Sequence record: JN673056
Source: Escherichia phage PhaxI
Reading direction: 5' to 3' (one strand)
Length of the DNA: 64,000 bases
The position numbers and the translations under genes are program-made. This document shows, piece after piece, positions 4,412-20,436 of the stretch. Each line of letters starts with the position of its first letter. Position 1 is the first letter of the stretch. The notes beneath the pieces were generated by a model. That model was not told where the DNA came from. It searched no databases and saw nothing but the letters and a program-made list of their open reading frames with translations.

Positions 4412-4711
4412 ATGGAAACCAGAGATGTTTACTTCGTGTATGAGCAACAGGCATTTGGATCACTGCGCCGAAAAACAAAGTTCCTTGTTGATTCATTCCA
4501 ATTTGATGGAGAACTCAAGGAATACTCGTTCAGGAATTTTCCTCCGAGAGAAGTCATAGGCGACCAGTTCGTGAAATTATTTTGTCGTTGTGGCGGCTGT
4601 GACTTTAACGACGACGGATATTCCATGCATGTTTATTGCTGCAATTGTTGTGGTAAATATATTACAGTCTATAGGAGAACTGATCATGGCGAAGACACAA
4701 AAGAAAATTGA
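4412..4711 (+). CDS. hypothetical Cys-rich small protein
   Basis: 99-aa ORF with CRCGGCDF...CCNCCGK cysteine clusters; starts 9 nt after the terminator. Confidence 0.45.
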   Translation: METRDVYFVYEQQAFGSLRRKTKFLVDSFQFDGELKEYSFRNFPPREVIGDQFVKLFCRCGGCDFNDDGYSMHVYCCNCCGKYITVYRRTDHGEDTKEN

Positions 4712-5099
4712 AAACACCCAAACCATCCAAGAAATCACTGCACAGGAAGAAAATAAACTTCCCAGTTATCTGCAACGCGTGGTGGATAACGTGCCTCAGG
4801 GCGGCGACGGCGGTATTGTCTACGCTGGTGACTACGGTTGGGTGTGTGAATATAAAGACGGCTCTAAGGAGCTTCTAGAGGAACTCACCGGACTTGCCGG
4901 AACTTTGCGCCGTTATGGGTTAGATAAATTCGGTAAGCCGATGAAACCAGGTACTGTGGTATCAACCGATATTACAGTTGAAGTTCTTCTTTTGCTCGAT
5001 ATCAATGATCTTAAAACACTTGCGGAACCCCTGGGTATCGACGCGACTGACCGTAATGAAATAATCTCGCAATTGGCTGAAAAACTGCAGATTAAATAA
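4686..5099 (+). CDS. hypothetical protein
   Basis: ORF 4590..5099 trimmed to ATG at 4686 (MAKTQKK...) preceded by AGGAG; first part of the track ORF overlaps the previous gene. Confidence 0.45.
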   Translation: MAKTQKKIENTQTIQEITAQEENKLPSYLQRVVDNVPQGGDGGIVYAGDYGWVCEYKDGSKELLEELTGLAGTLRRYGLDKFGKPMKPGTVVSTDITVEVLLLLDINDLKTLAEPLGIDATDRNEIISQLAEKLQIK

Positions 5100-5131: not shown

Positions 5132-5524
5132 ATGGCTATCGTTGACGAAAGCAATTTGATGGAGTACGCTCTAAGACATTATATCACCCCTGGTGTCTCA
5201 AGAGATGATTTGATGGTAGACATTCAGCGAATTTCGCTAATTAATCAATCATTGAAAAGATTTGTGCCAGGGAAAAGTCCTCGAGTACTTATCAATCAAT
5301 TGATTATTCTTTTCAATACCTTTGAAACCGAAGCCGTGTGCCGAATGTTGGTGTTGAAAACGGATAAGAACCAACATCCTCGTCTTAAAGCAGCGCTGTT
5401 GACGTTAGGAGTTTGGCGAGATGATTTATGTTCCGGTTCATACGAACCAGATAATGAGCTGATGATGGCTCTGAACAACGATTTGGATGAGTGGAGGAAA
5501 CCATGCCAACAATCACAGTATTAG
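5132..5524 (+). CDS. hypothetical protein
   Basis: 130-aa ORF in the early plus-strand array. Confidence 0.45.
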   Translation: MAIVDESNLMEYALRHYITPGVSRDDLMVDIQRISLINQSLKRFVPGKSPRVLINQLIILFNTFETEAVCRMLVLKTDKNQHPRLKAALLTLGVWRDDLCSGSYEPDNELMMALNNDLDEWRKPCQQSQY

Positions 5525-10437: not shown

Positions 10438-11769
10438 ATGGTTGCTAAAAGTATTACCGTAACAGAATTTATCAACGGGGATCATAAAGAGTTTTCCGTG
10501 GTTAACAGCATCCGTCAAATCCCTCAGCTGATTGACAGCCTGAAGCCAAGCCAGCGCAAGATACTCTTTGCTGCTCTTGAATACAACAAGGAGGAGATTG
10601 TTGACCGCCTTGGCATGTTCGCCGCCGCTCGCACGAATTACAAATCCGGTGGTGAGAACATGAGCGGTACGATCGTGAACATGGCTCAGGGGTTCCCAGG
10701 TACGAATAACATCCCATACTTTGACCGCGACGGACAGTTTGGTTCAATCATGGGGCGCGAAGCGCCTTCCGCTCGTTATATTTCAGTGGCGGTGTCTGAA
10801 GTTATCCGTAAAATCTTCCGAAAGGAGGACGATGGGATATTGGAATACAATTATCTTGGGGAAGAGAAACTGGAGCCGAAATTCTTTTTACCCATCCTGC
10901 CCATGTTTCTCGTGAATGGTATAAATGGTATCGGCTCGGGTTATGCCACCGACCCCCCGTGTCACTGCGTTAAGTCCGTGCTCAGTGCCCTGAGAGCACT
11001 TCTCCGGGGAAAAGACCCGAAGGACTTAAAACCGTACTGGAATGGTTTCAAAGGAGAGACAGGCTATACTGAGGAAGGAAGAGCATACTGTCGTGGTTTG
11101 TTCCCCCGCGTTAATGCAACCACTTTGAACATCACCGAGGTTCCTATTGGTTGGTTCTCTAAAACCTATGAGACCAAAGTGCTGTTGCCCCTGTACAAGG
11201 CGGGAGTCCTCACTGAGTACGCCAACGATACGACCGAAGATGGTTGGGATATCACTGTTGTATTCAAGCGGGGTGAATTGTCTAAGTTGAATGACGAACA
11301 GGTTGAACAGATGTTCCGTCTCTACTCAGCTAATAAGCCCGTGTGGACAGCTTGGGATGAAGATGGTGTTATTCACCGTTATGATGGTTGGAAAGACATG
11401 TTGCTTCCATTTTTCAACTATCGCCTGAGTCGCTATGAAGATAGACGTCAGTATCTTATCAAGGAATTGACCGACAAAATACACCGTTTGAACAATCGTG
11501 CCATATTCATTGGGTGGGCTGTCATTACAGATATGCGCCGGAGCCTCACGGAACTGAAAGCGTTATTCCAGACAGACTATCCTGATTTTGATGGCGATCT
11601 CGATGATTTATTCAAGATGTCTTTATCATCAATTACACTAGATGCCCGTGAACGTTTGTTGAACCAGATAAAGAATTTAGAAGTTCAACGAGAAGAATTA
11701 AATAATAAGCAAGACATCGATCTTTATACTGAAGATTTAGATGATCTTGAAAAGGCATTGGGCCTATAA
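10438..11769 (+). CDS. 52: DNA topoisomerase II medium subunit (GyrA/ParC-like)
   Basis: ATG at 10438, 1 nt after the gp39 stop; N-terminus IDSLKPSQRKILFAA typical of the type II topoisomerase A subunit; about 443 aa like T4 gp52. Confidence 0.8.
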   Translation: MVAKSITVTEFINGDHKEFSVVNSIRQIPQLIDSLKPSQRKILFAALEYNKEEIVDRLGMFAAARTNYKSGGENMSGTIVNMAQGFPGTNNIPYFDRDGQFGSIMGREAPSARYISVAVSEVIRKIFRKEDDGILEYNYLGEEKLEPKFFLPILPMFLVNGINGIGSGYATDPPCHCVKSVLSALRALLRGKDPKDLKPYWNGFKGETGYTEEGRAYCRGLFPRVNATTLNITEVPIGWFSKTYETKVLLPLYKAGVLTEYANDTTEDGWDITVVFKRGELSKLNDEQVEQMFRLYSANKPVWTAWDEDGVIHRYDGWKDMLLPFFNYRLSRYEDRRQYLIKELTDKIHRLNNRAIFIGWAVITDMRRSLTELKALFQTDYPDFDGDLDDLFKMSLSSITLDARERLLNQIKNLEVQREELNNKQDIDLYTEDLDDLEKALGL

Positions 11770-11812
11770 ATCTGGAGGGTGAAATTCCCTCCAAACAAGC
11801 GAGGGGTTCACC

Positions 11813-12091
11813 ATGTTTGTATATTTCCGCAGTCTCTCATTGCTGACTTTCTTCTATTGGTTGTTCGATATCTTATGCCCTCGTTTTATTAAAGAGGAAG
11901 TTGCTTTCGTCAACCATGAAGGCCAACAAGATTTATGGATACCTCTTTGCGCTCTTTCTGATGTAACCGAATGGGATGAAGTGGGTATGGTTGGCACCAT
12001 GCGTTCATTTAATTTGTTTGGATTTGCATTATTCCCTAAGTTAATTGGAGAATTACGCCCATACAATCCTGATGAAGAAGTGGAGGCGTGA
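11813..12091 (+). CDS. hypothetical protein
   Basis: 92-aa ORF; preceded by hairpin GGAGGG...CCCTCC at about 11774-11792. Confidence 0.4.
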   Translation: MFVYFRSLSLLTFFYWLFDILCPRFIKEEVAFVNHEGQQDLWIPLCALSDVTEWDEVGMVGTMRSFNLFGFALFPKLIGELRPYNPDEEVEA

Positions 12092-12092
12092 T

Positions 12093-12398
12093 ATGTCAAA
12101 ATTATTGACTCCAAAATTATTATCAATGGGTGGTTCCATATATTTTCATTGTCCTGGATGTAATATGCTTCATCCTTATCGCATTTCAGGGCAAATGCCT
12201 GGCCCAATATGGCAATGGAATCACGATCTCGAATCACCGACTTTCACTCCTAGTCTGTTGGTGAATCATTCTCATCCGGCGAGTCGTTGTCATTTGTTCT
12301 TGACTGATGGTAAATTACAATTCCTTGGTGACTGTTTCCACGAATTAAAGAATCAAACGGTGGAGATGGTTGATATCCCCGAACTGAAATATGGATAG
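12093..12398 (+). CDS. hypothetical zinc-ribbon protein
   Basis: ATG at 12093 after GGAGGCGTGAT; CPGC...H and C.H cysteine/histidine clusters. Confidence 0.45.
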   Translation: MSKLLTPKLLSMGGSIYFHCPGCNMLHPYRISGQMPGPIWQWNHDLESPTFTPSLLVNHSHPASRCHLFLTDGKLQFLGDCFHELKNQTVEMVDIPELKYG

Positions 12399-12406
12399 AT
12401 TAGATT

Positions 12407-12820
12407 ATGAAATTACTTGGATATTTTCGTTCTTTACCTACTGGATCTCCTAATGGGTGTCAGTTATATTCTGAGGTGAAAGGGGACGTGGACGACACTC
12501 ACATCGCCTTGTATACTCGTGATATACCTGACCCAACCAAGTTTGATCGGCGTGTTGTGGCTGCTGCCAACAAATATGGTGATGTGATCGTTGTAAGCGC
12601 TCGACATCACGACAAATTGATGAACACGCAACTCAAACGATTGAAGGAAGCAGGTATTATCGAAACCACCCACACTCGTGAACAAGGGTTTATTGATAAC
12701 TATGGGCAATGGATGTCCCGTGAAGAGGCCGCTGTGGTCGCTCGTGAAGCCGGACAAACTAATCAGGTCCGTTTGAAGAACACTCCTTTCAAAGAACTCT
12801 TTTCCGAAGACCTCTATTGA
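12407..12820 (+). CDS. hypothetical protein
   Basis: 137-aa ORF; followed by a hairpin GGCGG-TATAATTG-CCGCC. Confidence 0.45.
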   Translation: MKLLGYFRSLPTGSPNGCQLYSEVKGDVDDTHIALYTRDIPDPTKFDRRVVAAANKYGDVIVVSARHHDKLMNTQLKRLKEAGIIETTHTREQGFIDNYGQWMSREEAAVVAREAGQTNQVRLKNTPFKELFSEDLY

Positions 12821-12869
12821 ATAAATTGGCGGTATAATTGCCGCCTAACCCCATAATGAGACAAATAAC

Positions 12870-13094
12870 ATGGCAAATGAAATTGGTGATATTGCCCAGT
12901 TCCGTGCTATTTCACGCCGCCTGAAATCGTATGGACTTGTCATCGAAGAAATAGATGAAGATGTTCAGGGTGTATTGGAAGGGATGTTTGGGAGTACCGT
13001 TGGAACGGAATTATTTGAACTTTTAAAGATGGCAGCTGATAACCAATTCGTTGAATATATTTCTGAACACGCTATTGATGGTCTGAATAAATGA
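12870..13094 (+). CDS. hypothetical protein
   Basis: 74-aa ORF. Confidence 0.4.
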   Translation: MANEIGDIAQFRAISRRLKSYGLVIEEIDEDVQGVLEGMFGSTVGTELFELLKMAADNQFVEYISEHAIDGLNK

Positions 13095-13327
13095 ACGAGT
13101 TATATGAATTTGAACGCGTGTATGAGTCCGCTTCAGTTTCAGGATACATGAAACGATTATATCAAGAAATCTGTGTTCGTTTGATAATGCGAGGAATATC
13201 TGTCAATTGTGTTATGGCACAGACAGACAGTTTTATTATGACACTCACTGACCATCGCCAGAATATGTGTATCATCCAGGTTAGCTGTGTCAACAACGAA
13301 ATTATACAATGGAGACGTTACGCATGA
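13091..13327 (+). CDS. hypothetical protein
   Basis: 78-aa ORF; ATGA start/stop overlaps with neighbours. Confidence 0.4.
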   Translation: MNELYEFERVYESASVSGYMKRLYQEICVRLIMRGISVNCVMAQTDSFIMTLTDHRQNMCIIQVSCVNNEIIQWRRYA

Positions 13328-13929
13328 CCACATATGTTATCACAAACGGCGATTTACTGAAAGCCGCTACGAGTTTTAATCTCATCAATGCTTTCGCTCA
13401 TGGCGCAGATTGTTGGTCTGTGATGGGCGCAGGTATCGCCAACCATGTTCGATTAGATTTCCCAGAAATTTACCGAGCCGACCAATTAGATGAACGTGGT
13501 CCGGAACAACGTTTGGGGAACATGTCCTATGCGTTTGATCATGACACTGGTGTCTGGGGATTCAATTTGTATACTCAGTTCTACCCTGGTCCTAACGCAC
13601 GCATGCCTTCCATTATCAGTTCAGTTCAGATTATGTTTGAACAAGTTCACGATATCATTGAGGCAAAAACTGACGAAACAGTCTATGTTGGTTTACCCGC
13701 CATCGGCTGTGGCATCGGTGGATTAAAACTGTTTCACGTGGTGAGTCAGATTAATAAAATCGCGGAGACTATCTTCGAAGATTCCAGGCGTCGTGTCGTA
13801 CCCGTCTTTTATATCCGACAGGGTGACGGGTTTGAACAAGATTTACAAGAACTTTCCCAGATGGTGGACTACGGAATCTCTGTCGTAGCTAGTGAAGAAG
13901 ATATCATCGAAGAGGAAGGTATTGGATGA
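13324..13929 (+). CDS. Macro domain protein (TARG1/OARD1-like ADP-ribose hydrolase fold)
   Basis: Start ATG at 13324 overlapping the upstream stop (ATGA); motif HGADCWSVMGAGIANHV...FP resembles the TARG1/DarG-type macrodomain signature (C..MGAGIA); second glycine-rich motif LPAIGCGIGGL. Confidence 0.55.
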   Translation: MTTYVITNGDLLKAATSFNLINAFAHGADCWSVMGAGIANHVRLDFPEIYRADQLDERGPEQRLGNMSYAFDHDTGVWGFNLYTQFYPGPNARMPSIISSVQIMFEQVHDIIEAKTDETVYVGLPAIGCGIGGLKLFHVVSQINKIAETIFEDSRRRVVPVFYIRQGDGFEQDLQELSQMVDYGISVVASEEDIIEEEGIG

Positions 13930-14270
13930 AGCGTGAAATAACAGAAGAGATGCTCGCCAAAGCCGTTCTTCATCCCAAGGTGCGTTTTGCATTTATCCCT
14001 ACACGTTTACACGATGGAAATTGGGTATGGCTGGAGCATTATGTTCGCGCTCCTATCGGCCTATATGCCCAACTCCGTTATGGCGGCGAAGTCGAGTTGA
14101 AACAATATCGCGTCGGCGGGGGATTAGGCGGGTTGGATGACGGGGAATATTTCCCACATCGAAATTTCGCCATGAACGATAATTCATATTTCAAAGTCGA
14201 GTATGCCGCCGCTTGTGGGACATATCCTTTGAAACTTCTTTTAGAGAAAGCAGGGGAAACTGATGTATAA
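13926..14270 (+). CDS. hypothetical protein
   Basis: 114-aa ORF, overlaps the upstream stop by 4 nt. Confidence 0.4.
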   Translation: MKREITEEMLAKAVLHPKVRFAFIPTRLHDGNWVWLEHYVRAPIGLYAQLRYGGEVELKQYRVGGGLGGLDDGEYFPHRNFAMNDNSYFKVEYAAACGTYPLKLLLEKAGETDV

Positions 14271-14898
14271 ATCTAATTTCTTGGCCGTCGCTGATAGCGA
14301 AACTCTCGGTCGTTGGGATGATGCTGTCATGTTGTCTTGGGCACAGACTATCGCCGACCTGACCAAGCGTTATACTCTTCAGCAGCTTGTTGTAGAGCGC
14401 ACGACATTTATCAAACTGAATGTCAAAGAACAGATTGAACTTGGCCGTGTGAAAGACCAGGGCACTGTGGAATGGTGGCTGGGTACAGGTAAACGCAACC
14501 CGTGCGACGCCGCCCGAGCTATCAGTCTATATCCGACCGACAAGGATATTTCTATTTTCAAATTGGCCGATGAAATTCGCAAGGGATGCCATCGCCTTGG
14601 GATCGACCCGCGATCGGTTGACTGGTGTGATAGGAATCTGTTTGACCTACGCAAGGCTCAGCACATCATTGAGGTGACGTGTAAGCAAGATTCCAACGAA
14701 CCTTGGGTCTATCACCACACATTTGACATCGTAAGCTGGCTGAAGGGTATTGGGCAGCAGGATCGATATGCTGGTATCAAGGCGTGGGAACTGGAAGGTA
14801 TGATCTATCATGACCCTCGTTATGATGCGGCGCTTGACTGGCTACGCATTCAGAAAACCATGGAAGACCTGATGGGGGCTGAAAGGTGGAAAGGATGA
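14263..14898 (+). CDS. DEDDh-type 3'-5' exonuclease (DexA-like)
   Basis: Exo I-like FLAVADSETLG and Exo III-like YHDPRYDAALD motifs. Confidence 0.45.
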   Translation: MYKSNFLAVADSETLGRWDDAVMLSWAQTIADLTKRYTLQQLVVERTTFIKLNVKEQIELGRVKDQGTVEWWLGTGKRNPCDAARAISLYPTDKDISIFKLADEIRKGCHRLGIDPRSVDWCDRNLFDLRKAQHIIEVTCKQDSNEPWVYHHTFDIVSWLKGIGQQDRYAGIKAWELEGMIYHDPRYDAALDWLRIQKTMEDLMGAERWKG

Positions 14899-14974
14899 AT
14901 CTTTCCTTGTTTCATGGTTGTTTACAATCATAGTTTTCTTCATAGTCTGTGTTCAATATTTTGGAGGTTCTTAA

Positions 14975-15265
14975 ATGTTCTTTCAAATTGTCGGGGTGAT
15001 CACGACCATTGTTTTTGTTGCCATAACGCTTTGGATATTGTATTCTTCATTTATCCATCCGATTTTCAGGGCTCTCAGTATTACACGTTGGCTCACAGCG
15101 TGTTCTTTGAAATCCGGAAGCGAATGTCCTTCTTTATCGTCCAAATGGAAATTCTTCAAATGGGCGTATGAAGTCGGAGGAGTCCGAACAACCAGATATT
15201 CGAATAATGTAGGGGAATGGTTTAGCATCGGCAATTGGCGTTTGTACGAATCTGAAGACAAATAA
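14975..15265 (+). CDS. hypothetical membrane protein
   Basis: 96-aa ORF with N-terminal transmembrane helix (IVGVITTIVFVAITLWILY); followed by a terminator. Confidence 0.4.
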   Translation: MFFQIVGVITTIVFVAITLWILYSSFIHPIFRALSITRWLTACSLKSGSECPSLSSKWKFFKWAYEVGGVRTTRYSNNVGEWFSIGNWRLYESEDK

Positions 15266-15290
15266 GCCCCGAAAGGGGCTTTTCTATTTG
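15265..15290 (+). terminator. Rho-independent terminator (GAAA tetraloop)
   Basis: AGCCCC-GAAA-GGGGCT followed by TTTTCTATTT; TATAAT 12 nt further downstream. Confidence 0.65.
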
Positions 15291-15337
15291 TATAATGTAT
15301 TATCATTGTACCATCATATCTTTATGGCGCACAACAA

Positions 15338-15634
15338 ATGAAAGAGCAAGAAATTATCCAGCATTGTATTCGCTTAGGAACATTAAAACCTCTCTATCAG
15401 GCTTTGCGTTTCAATGCCATTAAATTCAAACCTTTACCAAGAACTATTGCAACGTTCTTTGCCATGCGTTCTGTTGGAAAAACGATTTTCTTTGAGCATG
15501 ACATTTATTTTTATACAAAGATTAATGGCGAAGATTTAGATAAAATGATTTTCGTGAACGACGATAAAAATATGAAGATAAAAGTGGAAAACGAATTGCG
15601 CAGGATAAATGATTCTTTAAGAGGAATATTTTAA
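15338..15634 (+). CDS. hypothetical protein
   Basis: 98-aa ORF. Confidence 0.4.
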   Translation: MKEQEIIQHCIRLGTLKPLYQALRFNAIKFKPLPRTIATFFAMRSVGKTIFFEHDIYFYTKINGEDLDKMIFVNDDKNMKIKVENELRRINDSLRGIF

Positions 15635-16296
15635 TGGAAATTGTTGTCTCAATATCTGATTGTGATTTTGTATACCGTGTTCTTCAAGGGGATGCTCCAT
15701 TGCCGGAGAATAATCAAGAAGTGACGTTGTTCTGGTCTGGTGGGGTGGATAGCACATACATGTTGATTTGGTTGTTATCGAAAGGATATTCAGTTCATAC
15801 TGTGTATTGCCACCTCGAAAATAATAAATTTAAATCTAAACGCGAAAATTGGGCGAGGAATAAAATACACAACTGGATTAATAAAAATGCCCCACTTCTC
15901 ATGTATCGTTGGACACATCATCAAGAACCTATCAGTAGCATCAACGTCCCGAACGGTGGTTTTCGCGCTTGTTTAGCACAAGCCCCGATATGGTTATTAA
16001 ACACGCAATTTAAAGGCAGTGGCTTGCCTTCCACGTATATCTTGGCATATGTTAACGGCGATGACGCAATACACTGGATACCCGCCTTTAATAAAGTTAT
16101 TGAAGGATACAACATGATGACCAGAGACGGGGAAAGATCTATTGAAATTTTATATCCATTGATTAGTCTCAAGAAATCTTGGTTCTATCATCACATGTCC
16201 CCAATACATGACTTAATGACATGGTGTGAATTGCCAATTTTGAAAAAGAATTGTGATTGTCCTGCGTGTGTTCGACATCGCCATGAGTTATCATAG
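15634..16296 (+). CDS. PP-loop ATPase, QueC-like (7-cyano-7-deazaguanine synthase family)
   Basis: PP-loop SGGVDS in LFWSGGVDSTYML; C-terminal cysteine cluster TWCE...NCDCPACVRH resembling the QueC zinc site; about 220 aa like QueC. Confidence 0.5.
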   Translation: MEIVVSISDCDFVYRVLQGDAPLPENNQEVTLFWSGGVDSTYMLIWLLSKGYSVHTVYCHLENNKFKSKRENWARNKIHNWINKNAPLLMYRWTHHQEPISSINVPNGGFRACLAQAPIWLLNTQFKGSGLPSTYILAYVNGDDAIHWIPAFNKVIEGYNMMTRDGERSIEILYPLISLKKSWFYHHMSPIHDLMTWCELPILKKNCDCPACVRHRHELS

Positions 16297-16298
16297 AG

Positions 16299-16640
16299 AT
16301 GAAACGTTCAGTTGTTGTAAATGACATCACGAGATTGATAAATCTTATCAAAGACGTCTTCCCACAACAGGTGGATGTTGAGTATGTTGGGAAGAACGGA
16401 AAGTGCTATCAGGTTGCTCTGGTTCTGAAGCATGTGTATCCTCAAGCAGAGATCCATTACAGTCAGATCGAAGGTCATGTATACACTCTGATTGATGGGA
16501 ATTATTATGACATCGAAGGCATTCACTTCAGTGTTCCTCCCGATACGTGCTTATTGGAACATAATAGAGGTCACAAACCGCATCGCTGGCATAAAGGGTT
16601 TGTGAACGTACCGATTTTAGAATGGCTGAGGAAACCATAA
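16299..16640 (+). CDS. hypothetical protein
   Basis: 113-aa ORF; stop overlaps the next start (TAATG). Confidence 0.4.
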
Positions 16641-17200
16641 TGGCGGGAATTGTAAAGCACCTTGGTGACACTCATCTTGGGCATAAGAAGGTCTTTAAAC
16701 CGCGTGGATTTGATACACAGGAAGCCCATGACGCTGCGGTCATTGACAGTATCTTTCAGGGGTTGAAGTCTCGGGACGTTCTTGAACTGGCTGGTGATAT
16801 ATGCTTCATCGGGGCTGAAGGGTTCATTCGCCTGATGCGGGAGGGTGCCAAGCGAAACATTGATGAGTTTAAGCGACGCCCCGTCCCCGATGACTGGCGT
16901 CCGAACTTTATCATCAGGGTGGCACAGGGCAACCACGATAGCTTTAAGATGCTGTTGTCTTTGTATATGGACGGCTGGATTAGCTCCTTCGGCGCTATGT
17001 ACGAACGTGACACGCCTGTTGGCCGTGTGTTGACAACACATGTTCCTTATCAATTAGACCGTTGGGCGTATAATATCCATGGTCATCTTCACGAAAATAT
17101 TCGCGAAGAGCGCGAATACCTGAACTGCAGTTGGGAACAATTCAAGCGTCCTGTAACCCTGGCTGAGTTGTTATACACAAATTTAGGAATTGTGCTATGA
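16640..17200 (+). CDS. calcineurin-like metallophosphoesterase
   Basis: Metallophosphatase motifs [22 protein letters not shown] and IHGHLHE in the canonical order. Confidence 0.65.
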
Positions 17201-17529
17201 AAATATTCTTTCCTGGTCAGAAAGTACCCGAAGAAATACAAAAGGTCGAGTTATTTGGTTATAAAAGCGGTGATCCGTTCCTGCGATTTTCTTCACCATG
17301 TATCGTGAAGCGCAATCATGAAGGGCATTATGTGCGCCCAATCATCCTCATGGGTTCTGTCATGACGCTGAGAGCTAAAACGGATTCGGTTGTTATTACT
17401 GGAAGTCCCAACATACCCAATGGAAAGACTACGCTAAATTGCAAGCCCATCCTGTCGTCTTGGGTGTTAATTGTATTTCTGTCTATAATCTTGTTTTATC
17501 GTTACCTTACTGACTTGGGGATCTTATGA
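17197..17529 (+). CDS. hypothetical protein with C-terminal TM helix
   Basis: 110-aa ORF; ATGA overlap with upstream gene. Confidence 0.4.
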
Positions 17530-17876
17530 AAAAGCCACGCATCACAGGACATCAACTCTGCGTCCTTTTAGGAATGTTGAATTTTGAAAAAGGTGAAGCC
17601 AGACGCCTTTGTCATTGGTATTTCAATCCCAAATCTTGGACGAACGATAAAGGGAAAACGGTTTGGACTTTTCATGCGCCACCGATATCTGGCGGGTTTC
17701 GTTCTGTAAAGGGTGATCCATGGGATACGCGTTCAGGTCAATCCTTGTTGTCTAAAGGTCTGATAGAACCTGCGTTTACAATGGTTCATGACAACTCTGA
17801 AGAGTATAAGCATTGGCCGAAGTCTGAAGTAACATTCTATAGGCTTACAGACCTCGGTAAAGCATGTACTGAATAA
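17526..17876 (+). CDS. hypothetical protein
   Basis: 116-aa ORF. Confidence 0.4.
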   Translation: MKKPRITGHQLCVLLGMLNFEKGEARRLCHWYFNPKSWTNDKGKTVWTFHAPPISGGFRSVKGDPWDTRSGQSLLSKGLIEPAFTMVHDNSEEYKHWPKSEVTFYRLTDLGKACTE

Positions 17877-17897
17877 TATTTTAGGTTATTGAAGAAA

Positions 17898-17925
17898 GGG
17901 GAAGGTATACTTCCCCTTAATTTAT
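17898..17925 (+). terminator. terminator-like hairpin
   Basis: GGGGAAG-GTATA-CTTCCCC followed by TTAATTTATT. Confidence 0.5.
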
Positions 17926-17939
17926 TGGGAGAGACAAAC

Positions 17940-18281
17940 ATGATTTCATTAAAAGAAATGTACGAACGCCTCGAAGAACTGAAATCTAAAGAACGTCTGT
18001 ATTCAGAAGAGAATGCAGAAATGTCAGATCTTATCGAAAAAATTGCGTTGCGTGAAAAGTATCTTCAACGTTATATCAATCAATCACCTCACATTGTTGA
18101 ACGTGTGAACGTTGAACTGGAAAAACTGTCCCCAATCACGTATGACAAATTGGGTATGGATAAAGTCCACACGGCTATCTCTGGTGTTGTGAACTCTATG
18201 TTGGCGTTGGGACAAGTATTTGGTCGCCAGGACCATGATGATCTTATTTTCTACATTGAGAAAAATGTGGTGGTCAAATGA
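17940..18281 (+). CDS. hypothetical protein
   Basis: Track ORF begins at TTG inside the terminator; first ATG 17940 (MISLKEMY...) preceded by GGGAGAGAC. Confidence 0.4.
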   Translation: MISLKEMYERLEELKSKERLYSEENAEMSDLIEKIALREKYLQRYINQSPHIVERVNVELEKLSPITYDKLGMDKVHTAISGVVNSMLALGQVFGRQDHDDLIFYIEKNVVVK

Positions 18282-18685
18282 AACGTTATCGCCTGAAGTT
18301 TGAGTTAACTCGAAGGGAAGACAACGAACTCATATATGGGGAAATTTTCATATATGATCCTTATGATACGGAATACACTGAATGGCTGAAGATAATATTG
18401 GCTGGTGAAGTCGATAAAGTATACCGTGCCATTGAAAAGGACGCCAAAGGGGTATTAAGTTTTGGTCATCTTCGAGTAGCGGCCATGATTGGTTCAGCTT
18501 TAGAAATAGTGTCTGAAGCGATAGCCATAGATCTACCAGGGGAACATATCTTCATCCGTGAATCTAAAGTTGATATGGCAACGAATTATGTGATGAAATT
18601 GACCTTGACAGAAAATATGGAAAATAACAAACCAAGTATTTTCCGCCGTTTCATGAACAAATTAAAGGGTGTTAAAAATGATTAA
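18278..18685 (+). CDS. hypothetical protein
   Basis: 135-aa ORF. Confidence 0.4.
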   Translation: MKRYRLKFELTRREDNELIYGEIFIYDPYDTEYTEWLKIILAGEVDKVYRAIEKDAKGVLSFGHLRVAAMIGSALEIVSEAIAIDLPGEHIFIRESKVDMATNYVMKLTLTENMENNKPSIFRRFMNKLKGVKND

Positions 18686-19196
18686 ACCACGAATGATGTT
18701 CGCCCATATGCGATCAGCTGCAGCATATGGTGTAACCAGTTATGCTCGGCGTCTGCAAGTCGGTTGTGTTATCGTAAACCCTGAAACTGATCAGCCTGTG
18801 GCTATCGGATGGAACGGAACGCCTCCTGGCATGCCGAATGTTTGTGAGATGGAACAACACGGGCAAATTGTTACAAACCCGTGTGTCATTCATGCGGAGG
18901 AAAATGCTCTAATGCGTATCCCCGAAAATGCAGATGATTTCACAGGGTTGGTTATGTTTGTGACACATAGCCCATGCCCTGATTGCACTCAGAAGATCAT
19001 CGACAATGGCAAGATCGATAAAGTATATTATCAAGAGCCATATCGTATCATGGATGGAATCAAAAGATTGATGAACTCCGGAATTGAAGTTTACCGGATG
19101 GTGGGCGATATGGCAATCCTTAAACACGTTTTCGACGATCAAGGCGAAGTCGGATACGAACAAATCTTATCCAACCCAGACAAAGTAAGGAATTAA
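18678..19196 (+). CDS. cd: dCMP deaminase
   Basis: Zinc-binding deaminase motifs HAEENAL and SPCPDC; ATG 18678 preceded by AAAGGGTG. Confidence 0.75.
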   Translation: MIKPRMMFAHMRSAAAYGVTSYARRLQVGCVIVNPETDQPVAIGWNGTPPGMPNVCEMEQHGQIVTNPCVIHAEENALMRIPENADDFTGLVMFVTHSPCPDCTQKIIDNGKIDKVYYQEPYRIMDGIKRLMNSGIEVYRMVGDMAILKHVFDDQGEVGYEQILSNPDKVRN

Positions 19197-19197
19197 A

Positions 19198-19605
19198 ATG
19201 CGTTATGTAGACCGCATGCTCGGCGAAAATGAACATGTCATCGCTTTCACCCGCCCGACTTGGTGGAGCGGTTTTTGGATTTATGTTCTGGTTATTTTAA
19301 CGATTATCCCAACATTTGGATTCAGTTTGTTATTTCTGATACCAACAATTTTAAATGTATTGACAACTGAATTCGCAGTCACCAACAAGCGTGTTATTGT
19401 CAAACGAGGATTTATTCGTCGTGATGCTGATGAACTCCGTCTTGGTAAAGTAGAAACCATTAAGGTGGACCAGTCTATTACAGGCCGTATCCTGAAGTTT
19501 TCGACCATCAGTGTTATTGGTACGGGCGGTACTCGCCTGTTGGCTACAGGTTGTGCTAAAGGGAACGAATTCCGTCAAAAAATTTATGATCATCTGGGTG
19601 ACTAA
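19198..19605 (+). CDS. membrane protein with bacterial PH-like domain
   Basis: Two N-terminal TM helices followed by a soluble domain resembling YdbS/YdbT-type bPH_2 proteins. Confidence 0.4.
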   Translation: MRYVDRMLGENEHVIAFTRPTWWSGFWIYVLVILTIIPTFGFSLLFLIPTILNVLTTEFAVTNKRVIVKRGFIRRDADELRLGKVETIKVDQSITGRILKFSTISVIGTGGTRLLATGCAKGNEFRQKIYDHLGD

Positions 19606-19824
19606 ATGATTACTGCAGGATACACCGTCGATTTGTATTGTGAGTGTGTTGAATGCAAATCTTGTAATTGGGCTTGGGAAGAACATCACCCCAGATGTGG
19701 GATGAAGTCTTATGCTGGTGAATCTTGGGGAGACTGTGCTAGACAAGCCCGTGCTGATGGGTGGATGATATGCAGGGACAAACAAACTTGCTTTGCCCCT
19801 GGACATCCAAGGAAATCAGGGTAA
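19606..19824 (+). CDS. hypothetical Cys-rich protein
   Basis: 72-aa ORF with CECVECKSC...C...C..C pattern. Confidence 0.4.
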   Translation: MITAGYTVDLYCECVECKSCNWAWEEHHPRCGMKSYAGESWGDCARQARADGWMICRDKQTCFAPGHPRKSG

Positions 19825-20436
19825 TAACAAACCATCATCTTCCGATTGCGTTGGTTGTTTATTAGCAGTTTCCTTCTTCATTTGCTCTTTCAACGCATTA
19901 ATCCTTTGAGCGCGGCGTCGATCTTCCATTTCGACTTCGCGCTTTTTCTTAGAACGAAGAGCAAATTGTTTTTTAACTTCTGGGTCTTCACCTGGCACCA
20001 AATGTTCTTCTGTCCAGATAATGAATTTCCAACCTACCTTTGCGCAATGTTCTTTAGTTGCTGTCCACTTTGCCTGATTTACCAACCAAGTGCGCATTGA
20101 ATTATTGAATGTTGATTCTTTCATCGTTTTAGTTTTTCGAGGTTCTTTAATCTGGTCTTTGGGTTTTATTTCAATAAGAGTAATTTGTAATTCATCAGAA
20201 TCCTGCCGACGAGTCCAAACCTTCAAATCCATGAAATAACGATGGGCGCGGCCATCAACCGGAGATATGTAAGGGATTACAGTTTCTTCTGAAGACCAAT
20301 AGACGATAGCAGGATTCATATCACAAAATTTAAAGGCGACAAGTTCTAGCGAAGAACGAAATACTATTTTGTTCACGTCGCCTTTATATTTCTTGGGATT
20401 TACGGGAACATACTTCCCCTGCAAATACATAGCCAT
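19816..20436 (-). CDS. head completion / DNA end protector protein (gp4/gp2 family)
   Basis: Segment YWSSEETVIPYISPVDGRAHRYFMDL resembles the conserved core of T4 gp4/gp2 as recalled; divergently oriented from the baseplate genes as in T4. Confidence 0.45.
   Translation of the reverse strand: MAMYLQGKYVPVNPKKYKGDVNKIVFRSSLELVAFKFCDMNPAIVYWSSEETVIPYISPVDGRAHRYFMDLKVWTRRQDSDELQITLIEIKPKDQIKEPRKTKTMKESTFNNSMRTWLVNQAKWTATKEHCAKVGWKFIIWTEEHLVPGEDPEVKKQFALRSKKKREVEMEDRRRAQRINALKEQMKKETANKQPTQSEDDGLLLP

Follow-up and report, generated by a model that had tools for sequence, protein, structure and literature searches.

The 64,000-nucleotide stretch of Escherichia phage PhaxI analysed here (record JN673056; hereafter the window) carries, at positions 15634-16296 of the + strand, an open reading frame (ORF) of 220 residues with an ATG start, the product of which is probably a stand-alone, phage-specific PP-loop ATP pyrophosphatase of the QueC/Cap9 clade, predicted to contain zinc and to act as an adenylate-forming ligase or amidotransferase on a heterocyclic substrate. 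Its gene is no marker of DNA modification with dPreQ0, dADG or dG+. The protein and its orphan status were already known from RefSeq and PHROG labels and from the survey of Hutinet et al. (2019; PMC6884629).

Profile comparisons place the protein in its family at two levels of resolution. As a single sequence, it is matched by PHROG 1550 ('QueC-like') over residues 1-219 with E 6.3e-82, well outside chance expectation, supporting the QueC-like PP-loop enzyme proposed in the initial annotation. The profile check suggested there gives a divided answer, the Pfam model PF06508 (QueC) scoring 23.7 bits against a cutoff of 22, over residues 33-64 only, but the QueC equivalog model TIGR00364 reaching 17.9 bits against a cutoff of 150.3, over residues 33-58 only. 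ThiI scores 22.7 bits, and the PP-loop is the only part of the single sequence matched by the Pfam QueC, ThiI and ArgG models; single-sequence matches alone could fit any PP-loop enzyme. At the level of the family, Pfam QueC matches all 44 sampled diverse members (best E 1e-11), and a 44-member profile compared with PDB sequences aligns over the full length, zinc motif included, with Bacillus subtilis QueC (E 1.3e-11), Pectobacterium QueC (E 7e-10) and Cap9 (E 6.7e-9), whereas argininosuccinate synthase, TtuA, LarE, TilS, ThiI and GMP synthase appear at E 2e-3 or worse and over the P-loop only. Comparison of the family with a Cap9 alignment by hhalign returns 98.4% probability and E 4e-15 over 161 columns; the corresponding comparison with canonical QueC is weak, since the QueC alignment consisted only of homologues at least 82% identical to the query. 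QueC and Cap9 are the closest families by profile and fold, and no other PP-loop family provides a better match. Judged by these alignments, the phage protein is a genuine QueC/Cap9-clade member of the QueC superfamily, because the QueC and Cap9 matches extend over the full length and those of other PP-loop families cover the P-loop only. It is not a QueC orthologue, because its TIGR00364 score lies far below cutoff, it has neither the YxQxH nor the RN motif, and the stacking Tyr is probably lost.

The length of 220 residues is in line with QueC (219-231 residues). The gene and its motifs are listed below by window coordinates, with conservation given for two alignments, A1 and A2, and with reference to the complete, closely related genome of Salmonella phage Marshall.

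15634-16296, + strand: gene of the predicted QueC-superfamily PP-loop ATP pyrophosphatase, 220 residues, PHROG 1550, singleton.
15619-15625, + strand: Shine-Dalgarno sequence AAGAGGA, 8 nt 5' of the QueC-like ATG, read from the sequence; a ribosome-binding site is annotated at the equivalent place in the Marshall record.
15736-15753, + strand: PP-loop SGGVDS, residues 35-40, the ATP pyrophosphate-binding loop; sole SGGxDS in the six-frame window, invariant in A1 and A2.
15805-15846, + strand: motif Y58-x4-N63-N64-x2-K67-x2-R70-E71; N63, N64 and E71 invariant or nearly so in A1 and A2.
16048-16077, + strand: motif Y139-V-N-G-D143-D144-A-I-H-W148, likely counterpart of the QueC YPDC and Cap9 YxDCxxxF base-binding motif; Y139 and D143 invariant in A2.
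16153-16176, + strand: motif Y-P175-L-I-S-L-K-K181, equivalent to QueC 'PL..K165' and Cap9 'PF(x)4K', to which it aligns; P175 and K181 invariant in A2.
16225-16269, + strand: C198-E-x7-C207-x-C209-x2-C212, predicted four-Cys zinc site of QueC/Cap9 type ('CE...CxxCxxC'); one such pattern in the window.

Translated in all six frames, the 64 kb window contains SGGVDS and the Cys cluster only once each. The four cysteines (C198, C207, C209 and C212, spaced C-x8-C-x-C-x2-C) are invariant in both alignments and fall on the zinc motif when aligned to QueC (3bl5) and Cap9. Relative to the canonical QueC motif, C-x8-C-x2-C-x2-C, the Ackermannviridae clade is one residue shorter, and the wider family retains CxxCxxC. 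The PP-loop, the Cys cluster at the position of the QueC zinc site and the QueC-like length thus all read as the initial annotation had claimed. The Y58...E71 motif stands in place of QueC YxQxHxxE and Cap9 Y/FxQ(x)5E, with the aromatic and the Glu alone retained; in hhalign, Y58 pairs with Cap9 F41 and E71 with Cap9 E52. Across the phage family, the signature comprises WSGGxDST, Y-x4-NN-x2-K-x2-RE, a near-invariant Q116, Y139-V-x-[NG]-D143-[DC]-A-x-x-[FYW], FP175L-x-K-x2-K181 and WC198E...C-x(1-2)-C-x2-C.

These alignments also bear on a nucleic-acid base modifier of the ThiI/TtuA/MnmA/TilS type, in which a tRNA or DNA base carbonyl would be adenylated and then thiolated or aminated, an assignment that is decidedly improbable for this protein. 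The corresponding NCBIfam models score 13-16 bits against cutoffs of 94-284, the PDB profile comparison gives E 0.008 or worse over the P-loop only, and the single 220-residue domain lacks a THUMP or other RNA-binding domain and comes with no sulfur carrier or cysteine desulfurase as partner. In the alignments, the Cys cluster corresponds to the zinc site of QueC and not to an iron-sulfur triad, and C59, considered as a catalytic cysteine, is invariant within the Kuttervirus clade, yet not conserved across the wider family. ThiI and TtuA, like YcfA of Erwinia amylovora (PDB 9KQ6/9KQ9), share profile similarity with the phage family over the P-loop only, do not align with a QueC-type zinc ribbon and have other accessory domains and partners.

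The substrate pocket of the preferred QueC/Cap9-clade enzyme combines retained and lost elements. Canonical QueC is described by SGGxDS, YxQxHxxE, VPxRN, YPDC, K165 and C(x)8CxxCxxC, with Y35, R99, Y131 and Y189 essential in Escherichia coli QueC by mutagenesis (Libby et al. 2026; PMC13329287). From this set, the phage family retains the PP-loop, the Glu of YxQxHxxE (E42 equivalent), the Lys (K165 equivalent) and the predicted four-Cys zinc site, and has lost the Gln and His of YxQxH (Q37/H39), with the Y58...E71 spacing also differing, the Arg-Asn of VPxRN (R99/N100) and the P-D-C context. At the position of QueC Y189 stands a Glu, as in Cap9 ('CE'). The conserved Arg-Asn is not found in the 44-member alignment, in which the near-invariant Q116 occupies that segment; the Kuttervirus clade has 'VPNGGFR111' there, in an inconsistent alignment register.

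Base recognition in Cap9 involves Y115, stacked on the deazaguanine, and D117, which reads the N1/N2 edge; Y129 and D131 are the QueC equivalents (PMC13279940). Two hhalign comparisons, one with the wide family and one with the Kuttervirus clade, return the same pairing of D143 with D117, D144 (Cys in some members) with C118, and W148 with F122 of Cap9, and both leave the Cap9 'TPYY', stacking Tyr included, unmatched. Alignment by HMMER and MAFFT against QueC sequences alone gives a different register for the YPDC region. The base-reading Asp is likely retained as D143, and the stacking Tyr is likely lost.

If it follows the reactions shared by QueC, Cap9 and other PP-loop enzymes, as every characterised member of its clade does, the protein would use ATP to adenylate an acidic or carbonyl group of a small heterocycle, at an oxygen that in the QueC/Cap9 clade belongs to a carboxylate, with release of pyrophosphate, after which the activated group would pass to ammonia or an amine, releasing AMP and yielding an amide-type product. 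The pocket appears remodelled, with the Gln/His, the Arg-Asn pair and the stacking Tyr gone and the Asp, the distal aromatic, the Glu and the Lys retained; because of this remodelling, the substrate is probably handled otherwise than 7-carboxy-7-deazaguanine (CDG) is by QueC. The leading candidates are a guanine- or pterin-like acid, host-made CDG included, or a nucleotide. Given that the Asp able to read the edge of a 2-amino-oxo-pyrimidine may survive in the pocket, the substrate most plausibly belongs among guanine nucleotides or acids resembling guanine, deazaguanine or pterin.

A hint of 7-deazaguanine metabolism, with partner genes possibly elsewhere in the genome, had also been drawn from the gene. 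Analysis reveals no such partners. The Marshall RefSeq annotation, inspected over 1-150 kb with the remainder covered by the window, contains no FolE, QueD, QueE, QueF, DpdA or tRNA-guanine transglycosylase (TGT). The que/dpd partner families have no Pfam match in the window over 1-28.4 kb, in a scan of concatenated ORFs that serves well for strong families and drops weak matches (QueC and the phosphoesterase being missed). The scan for folE, queD, queE and dpdA/tgt extends this to window and Marshall together, tblastn with DpdA, FolE, QueD and QueE of phage 9g against the window and Marshall 1-150 kb giving a best E of 0.63. As a control query, 9g Gat-QueC meets the QueC-like ORF at the P-loop only (E 3.1), its best match anywhere being a 30-residue chance match at E 0.076. 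Annotation, Pfam and tblastn thus agree with the earlier observation that the window holds no recognisable partner, and the rest of the complete Marshall genome supplies none either. Beside the 77 viral homologues surveyed, queD, queE, folE and dpdA are likewise absent.

Published data point in the same direction. The Supplementary Data of Hutinet et al. (2019) list a QueC entry only for SFP10, ECML-4, Vi01, CBA120, PhiSH19, SP-15, RSF1/RSL2 and others; these singleton QueC-like proteins are unconnected to QueC or Gat-QueC in similarity networks, even at low threshold, and were regarded as a subgroup of N-type ATP pyrophosphatases whose function is probably unrelated (PMC6884629). The PHROG 1550 singletons of SFP10 (YP_004895194), ECML-4 (YP_009101458) and Vi01 (YP_004327394) belong to the same family as the window protein and share its singleton state, with no difference in kind, and the fallback of an orphan PP-loop enzyme with another role, offered in the initial annotation, is supported here as it was for the same protein family by Hutinet et al. 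DNA of ViI, CBA120, CBA6 and 1.255.O comprises, by liquid chromatography-mass spectrometry (LC-MS), only dA, dG, dC, dT and 5-(2-aminoethoxy)methyl-2'-deoxyuridine (5-NeOmdU), and 5-NeOmdU has been reconstituted with five other gene products, so that thymidine hypermodification is independent of the QueC-like gene (Lee et al. 2018; PMC5889632). Bulk guanine modification is absent from ViI-type DNA, and a phage-encoded preQ0/archaeosine DNA-modification pathway is excluded by the absence of phage que genes. With no FolE, QueD, QueE, DpdA or TGT, with QueC residues missing, TIGR00364 far below cutoff and no modified guanine in ViI-type LC-MS, the hint of 7-deazaguanine metabolism is not supported.

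The protein might instead be a working QueC or 7-amido-7-deazaguanine (ADG) synthase that converts host CDG into preQ0 (7-cyano-7-deazaguanine) or ADG, boosting queuosine in host or phage tRNA or feeding DNA modification via an unrecognised transglycosylase. Salmonella and E. coli synthesise CDG themselves, the protein has full-length QueC homology including the zinc site and is as long as QueC, D143 likely corresponds to the Asp by which Cap9 and QueC recognise the base, and a tRNA-Asn, whose anticodon is of Q type, is encoded by Marshall. This activity is nevertheless quite unlikely, given the TIGR00364 score of 17.9 against 150.3 bits, the missing Gln/His and Arg-Asn and the probable loss of the stacking Tyr, the Glu in place of Y189, with four QueC residues (Y35, R99, Y131, Y189) essential in E. 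coli, the lack of any DpdA or TGT in the window and Marshall, the normal dG of ViI-type DNA, and the separation of the singletons from QueC and Gat-QueC in similarity networks. Additionally, QatC, another divergent member, does not complement a queC deletion.

Cap9, from the type IV cyclic oligonucleotide-based antiphage signalling system (CBASS; PDB 9NTO), resembles the phage protein over the full length in sequence and fold, at an identity of ~18-25%. Of the Cap9 motif set, Y/FxQ(x)5E, RN, H(x)4YxDCxxxF, PF(x)4K and CE(x)6CxxCxxC, the phage family appears from the alignments to keep the aromatic...E pair as well as D-[DC]-x3-aromatic, P[LF]...K and CE...C..C..C, and has probably lost the Gln (Q46), the RN pair (R86/N87), the His and the stacking Y115, with 'TPYY' left without counterpart. 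Cap9 lies in a bacterial defence-island operon with a cGAS/DncV-like nucleotidyltransferase (CD-NTase; PF18144) and the TGT-like Cap10, whereas the QueC-like gene is phage-encoded, and neither CD-NTase nor Cap10 is found in the window neighbourhood, in the Marshall annotation or among the Pfam-annotated most frequent neighbour clusters of the viral loci. QatC is, like the phage protein, a divergent QueC-family member with a remodelled base-recognition motif (PMC13279940). It differs in its ~400 residues with N- and C-terminal extensions, against 220 in the phage protein, in its own motif set and in its place beside qatA, qatB and qatD. With the PADLOC QatC model, the window protein gives no match and one family member a match of E 0.083 over 13 residues only, and no qatA, qatB or qatD neighbour occurs in the Marshall annotation or among annotated viral-locus neighbours.

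By analogy with these two enzymes, the phage protein could be a viral counterpart of Cap9, a nucleobase-to-amine ligase that takes CDG, or a related guanine- or pterin-like acid, from the host and couples it to the N-terminal residue of a protein of the phage or of the host. Alternatively, it could serve counter-defence by using up the CDG on which type IV CBASS and Qat depend, and so subvert immunity based on deazaguanylation. The top-ranking similarity to Cap9, the apparently retained equivalent of D117 and a small Met-Gly/Ala protein adjoining the QueC-like gene in one lineage are in keeping with such a role, which is still unlikely: no partner is conserved across lineages, the upstream protein of Kutterviruses starts with MKEQ and lacks conservation across Ackermannviridae themselves, the neighbourhood contains neither a CD-NTase nor Cap10/TGT nor QatA/B/D, and Cap9 R86/N87 and Y115 are apparently not retained. 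Moreover, the QueC-like gene is conserved throughout the whole phage family and lies in replication modules, against the background of type IV CBASS and Qat as minority systems. If true, this role would turn protein deazaguanylation into a weapon wielded by both phage and host and provide the first function for more than 1000 phage protein clusters.

The small Met-Gly/Ala protein is a 120-residue product encoded directly upstream of the QueC-like gene in one uncultured lineage, just before a 1220-residue family-B polymerase, at loci L025, L026, L035-L038, L041-L044, L049-L052, L054, L056, L060, L067 and L070 (e.g. L035:105-467). Its N-terminus is Met-Gly or Met-Ala in 18 of the 19 copies, followed by x-Y-x-W-x2-NPF-[RQ]-D, with no Pfam match, and recalls the N-terminal-Gly substrates of Cap9 and QatC. 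As a universal small substrate it was rejected, being confined to that lineage.

The genomic surroundings of the preferred QueC/Cap9-clade ligase or amidotransferase were surveyed in 79 IMG/VR loci, 77 of them with a clustered QueC-like ORF, falling into 22 lineages at 40% identity. Gene order is fixed in the largest clade (44 loci), running c131, c137, SNF2 helicase, the 120-residue protein, QueC-like, family-B DNA polymerase, c211 and NUDIX (Pfam). Replication or recombination genes (SNF2, PolB, DnaB, RecA) lie at most 5 kb from the QueC-like gene in 5 of the 22 lineages and a dCMP deaminase gene within the same distance in 3. Homologues of the dCMP deaminase encoded in the window adjoin the QueC-like gene in L069 and L046 and lie ~6 kb off in L020. 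In SP-15, the QueC-like gene is two small ORFs downstream of the PolA gene, and in HPP-Temi it sits among helicase, DprA, dCTP deaminase and ligase genes, with the dCTP deaminase 2.4 kb off. This lineage context points, on modest evidence, to nucleotide or DNA metabolism in the infected cell as the setting of the enzyme.

In the window itself, the following neighbours surround the gene.

15264-15281, + strand: terminator-like hairpin ending the upstream unit; a terminator is annotated at the equivalent place in Marshall.
15338-15634, + strand: upstream co-transcribed ORF, 98 residues, PHROG 9302 (unknown function), found only in close relatives.
16299-16640, + strand: downstream ORF, 113 residues, Pfam PF24591 'Phage YunG-like' (E 5e-44), not conserved beside distant homologues.
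16622-17200, + strand: phosphoesterase/metallophosphatase, PHROG 547, 'metallophosphatase' in Marshall.
18669-19196, + strand: dCMP deaminase, Pfam dCMP_cyt_deam_1.

The hairpin at 15264-15281 and the next strong terminator-like hairpin after the QueC-like unit, at 17896-17918, flank the gene and thereby delimit a short + strand operon comprising the 98-residue ORF, the QueC-like gene, the YunG-like ORF, the phosphoesterase gene, DUF7618 and a 116-residue ORF. Within it, the stop codon (TAA) of the 98-residue ORF overlaps the ATG of the QueC-like gene in TAATG at 15632-15636. In the wider surroundings, the gene lies between those of the DexA exonuclease, two phosphoesterases and the dCMP deaminase, ~4-7 kb downstream of topoisomerase II genes. 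The 98-residue upstream and YunG-like downstream proteins were rejected as functional partners, being confined to close relatives and gone in the 55%-identical Ackermannviridae locus L012. The QueC-like enzyme appears to work without a dedicated partner, because the genes that adjoin it in Kutterviruses lack conservation even among other Ackermannviridae.

With an exonuclease, phosphatases and a dCMP deaminase as neighbours, the protein might alternatively be a nucleotide-pool enzyme acting on free (d)NMPs, for instance by adenylating a carbonyl of a purine or pyrimidine in the manner of GMP synthase or YcfA. This is very improbable, as the context evidence is weak and partly reflects shared ancestry, and sequence similarity to GMP synthase or YcfA does not extend beyond the common fold. 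A canonical-nucleotide product would be invisible in existing data, and direct support for it is absent.

Several considerations weigh against the preferred reading of a QueC/Cap9-clade ligase or amidotransferase. Its chemistry is taken from family membership alone. The association with replication modules is clear in one large clade and elsewhere extends to 4 further lineages only, and 17 of the 22 lineages have neighbours without annotation, such regions being simply early or middle gene regions. The LC-MS of ViI DNA gave major peaks only, and trace modifications would escape it. Furthermore, the lack of phage que genes does not by itself exclude deazaguanine chemistry: CDG of the host pathway may be used, because enterobacterial hosts make CDG themselves and because the base-recognising Asp of Cap9 and QueC seems retained.

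The window is that of a Kuttervirus (Ackermannviridae, ViI-like), positions 14000-18000 being 98.6% identical in nucleotides to Salmonella phage Marshall, Escherichia phage EP75 and many further Kuttervirus genomes. Identical or near-identical copies of the QueC-like protein occur in ~190 phage records, nearly all of Ackermannviridae, with Salmonella, Escherichia, Klebsiella, Serratia, Enterobacter and Erwinia as hosts. The ECML-4 (YP_009101458) and Vi01 (YP_004327394) proteins are ~91% identical to the window protein, and identity drops to 55% in Klebsiella and Serratia phages and to 32% in phiMAM1. The ratio of nonsynonymous to synonymous substitution rates (dN/dS) is 0.17, 0.03 and 0.10 against orthologues of 97%, 91% and 54% identity; because of these values of 0.03-0.17, the gene is judged to be under purifying selection and functional. 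In the Vi01-like phage Sajous1, proteomics recovered the QueC-like product once (gp66) (PMC10892097).

In the family at large, a profile built from 19 close homologues matches, at E 1e-3 or better, 1139 representatives, each standing for a 50%-identity cluster and most of them ~200 residues long with a full-length match. Beyond Ackermannviridae, several groups of jumbo phages carry the gene, and the isolate phages among the carriers include Pawinskivirus (PA5oct-like) jumbo phages, Ralstonia RSF1/RSL2, Burkholderia FLC9, Vibrio phage YC and Bacillus phage SP-15. The C-terminal extensions of longer homologues are of low complexity, without a recurrent domain. A motif-seeded scan of 185,579 bacterial and archaeal species, one genome per species, which relatives lacking the exact seed motifs would escape, confirmed ~5 full-length relatives, all but one on contigs of metagenome-assembled genomes, and gave 8 other matches over the P-loop only. 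The family looks essentially viral because full-length relatives are this few among the species genomes scanned. A literature search on the function of the family, on PP-loop proteins in jumbo phages and on Kuttervirus essentiality screens returned nothing specific.

Further observations concern the remainder of the window. Identity to Marshall is mosaic, at 98-99% over positions 1-2742 and 10452-18103 and 83-90% over 18684-61202; the left part of the window, with the QueC-like gene, is thus far closer to Marshall than the remainder, which suggests recombination among Kutterviruses. No tRNA gene is found in the window by ARAGORN, and Marshall has four (Ser, Asn, Trp and Met), all outside the window-equivalent part. 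Over 14800-19600, terminator-like hairpins number 11, against 3.5 +/- 1.8 in shuffles, and sigma-70-like promoters 12 against 14.4, not enriched, counts consistent with many short transcription units from non-host-type promoters. Two candidates upstream of the QueC-like gene were set aside. A NadE-like pairing with Marshall_190 (window 12407-12820, + strand, 137 residues, 2.8 kb upstream, 'C-N hydrolase') found no Pfam match and an unknown-function PHROG only, and a macro-domain reading of the 206-residue ORF at 13309-13929 (+ strand) found no Pfam support and PHROG 335 'phosphatase' only (E 5e-72). The labels 'C-N hydrolase superfamily' (12407-12820) and 'phosphatase' (13309-13929) look weakly founded. 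On the opposite strand, just past the dCMP deaminase gene, a 206-residue ORF (19816-20436, - strand) carries a TnsA-like endonuclease N-terminal domain (PF08722, E 3e-15). Small ORFs at 16299-16640, 17197-17529, 4590-5099, 5132-5524 and 13091-13327 belong to recent Pfam families without assigned function, namely Phage_YunG-like PF24591, DUF7618, DUF7440, DUF7207 and DUF7234.

For the Ackermannviridae, labels of 'QueC-like queuosine biosynthesis' on their genomes are no evidence for 7-deazaguanine DNA. For the family as a whole, with ~1100 clusters and an apparent restriction to phages, with part of the Cap9/QueC base-binding motif apparently kept beside an ATP-adenylating core, the substrate may bring to light a novel modification of nucleotides, nucleobases or proteins that serves infection.

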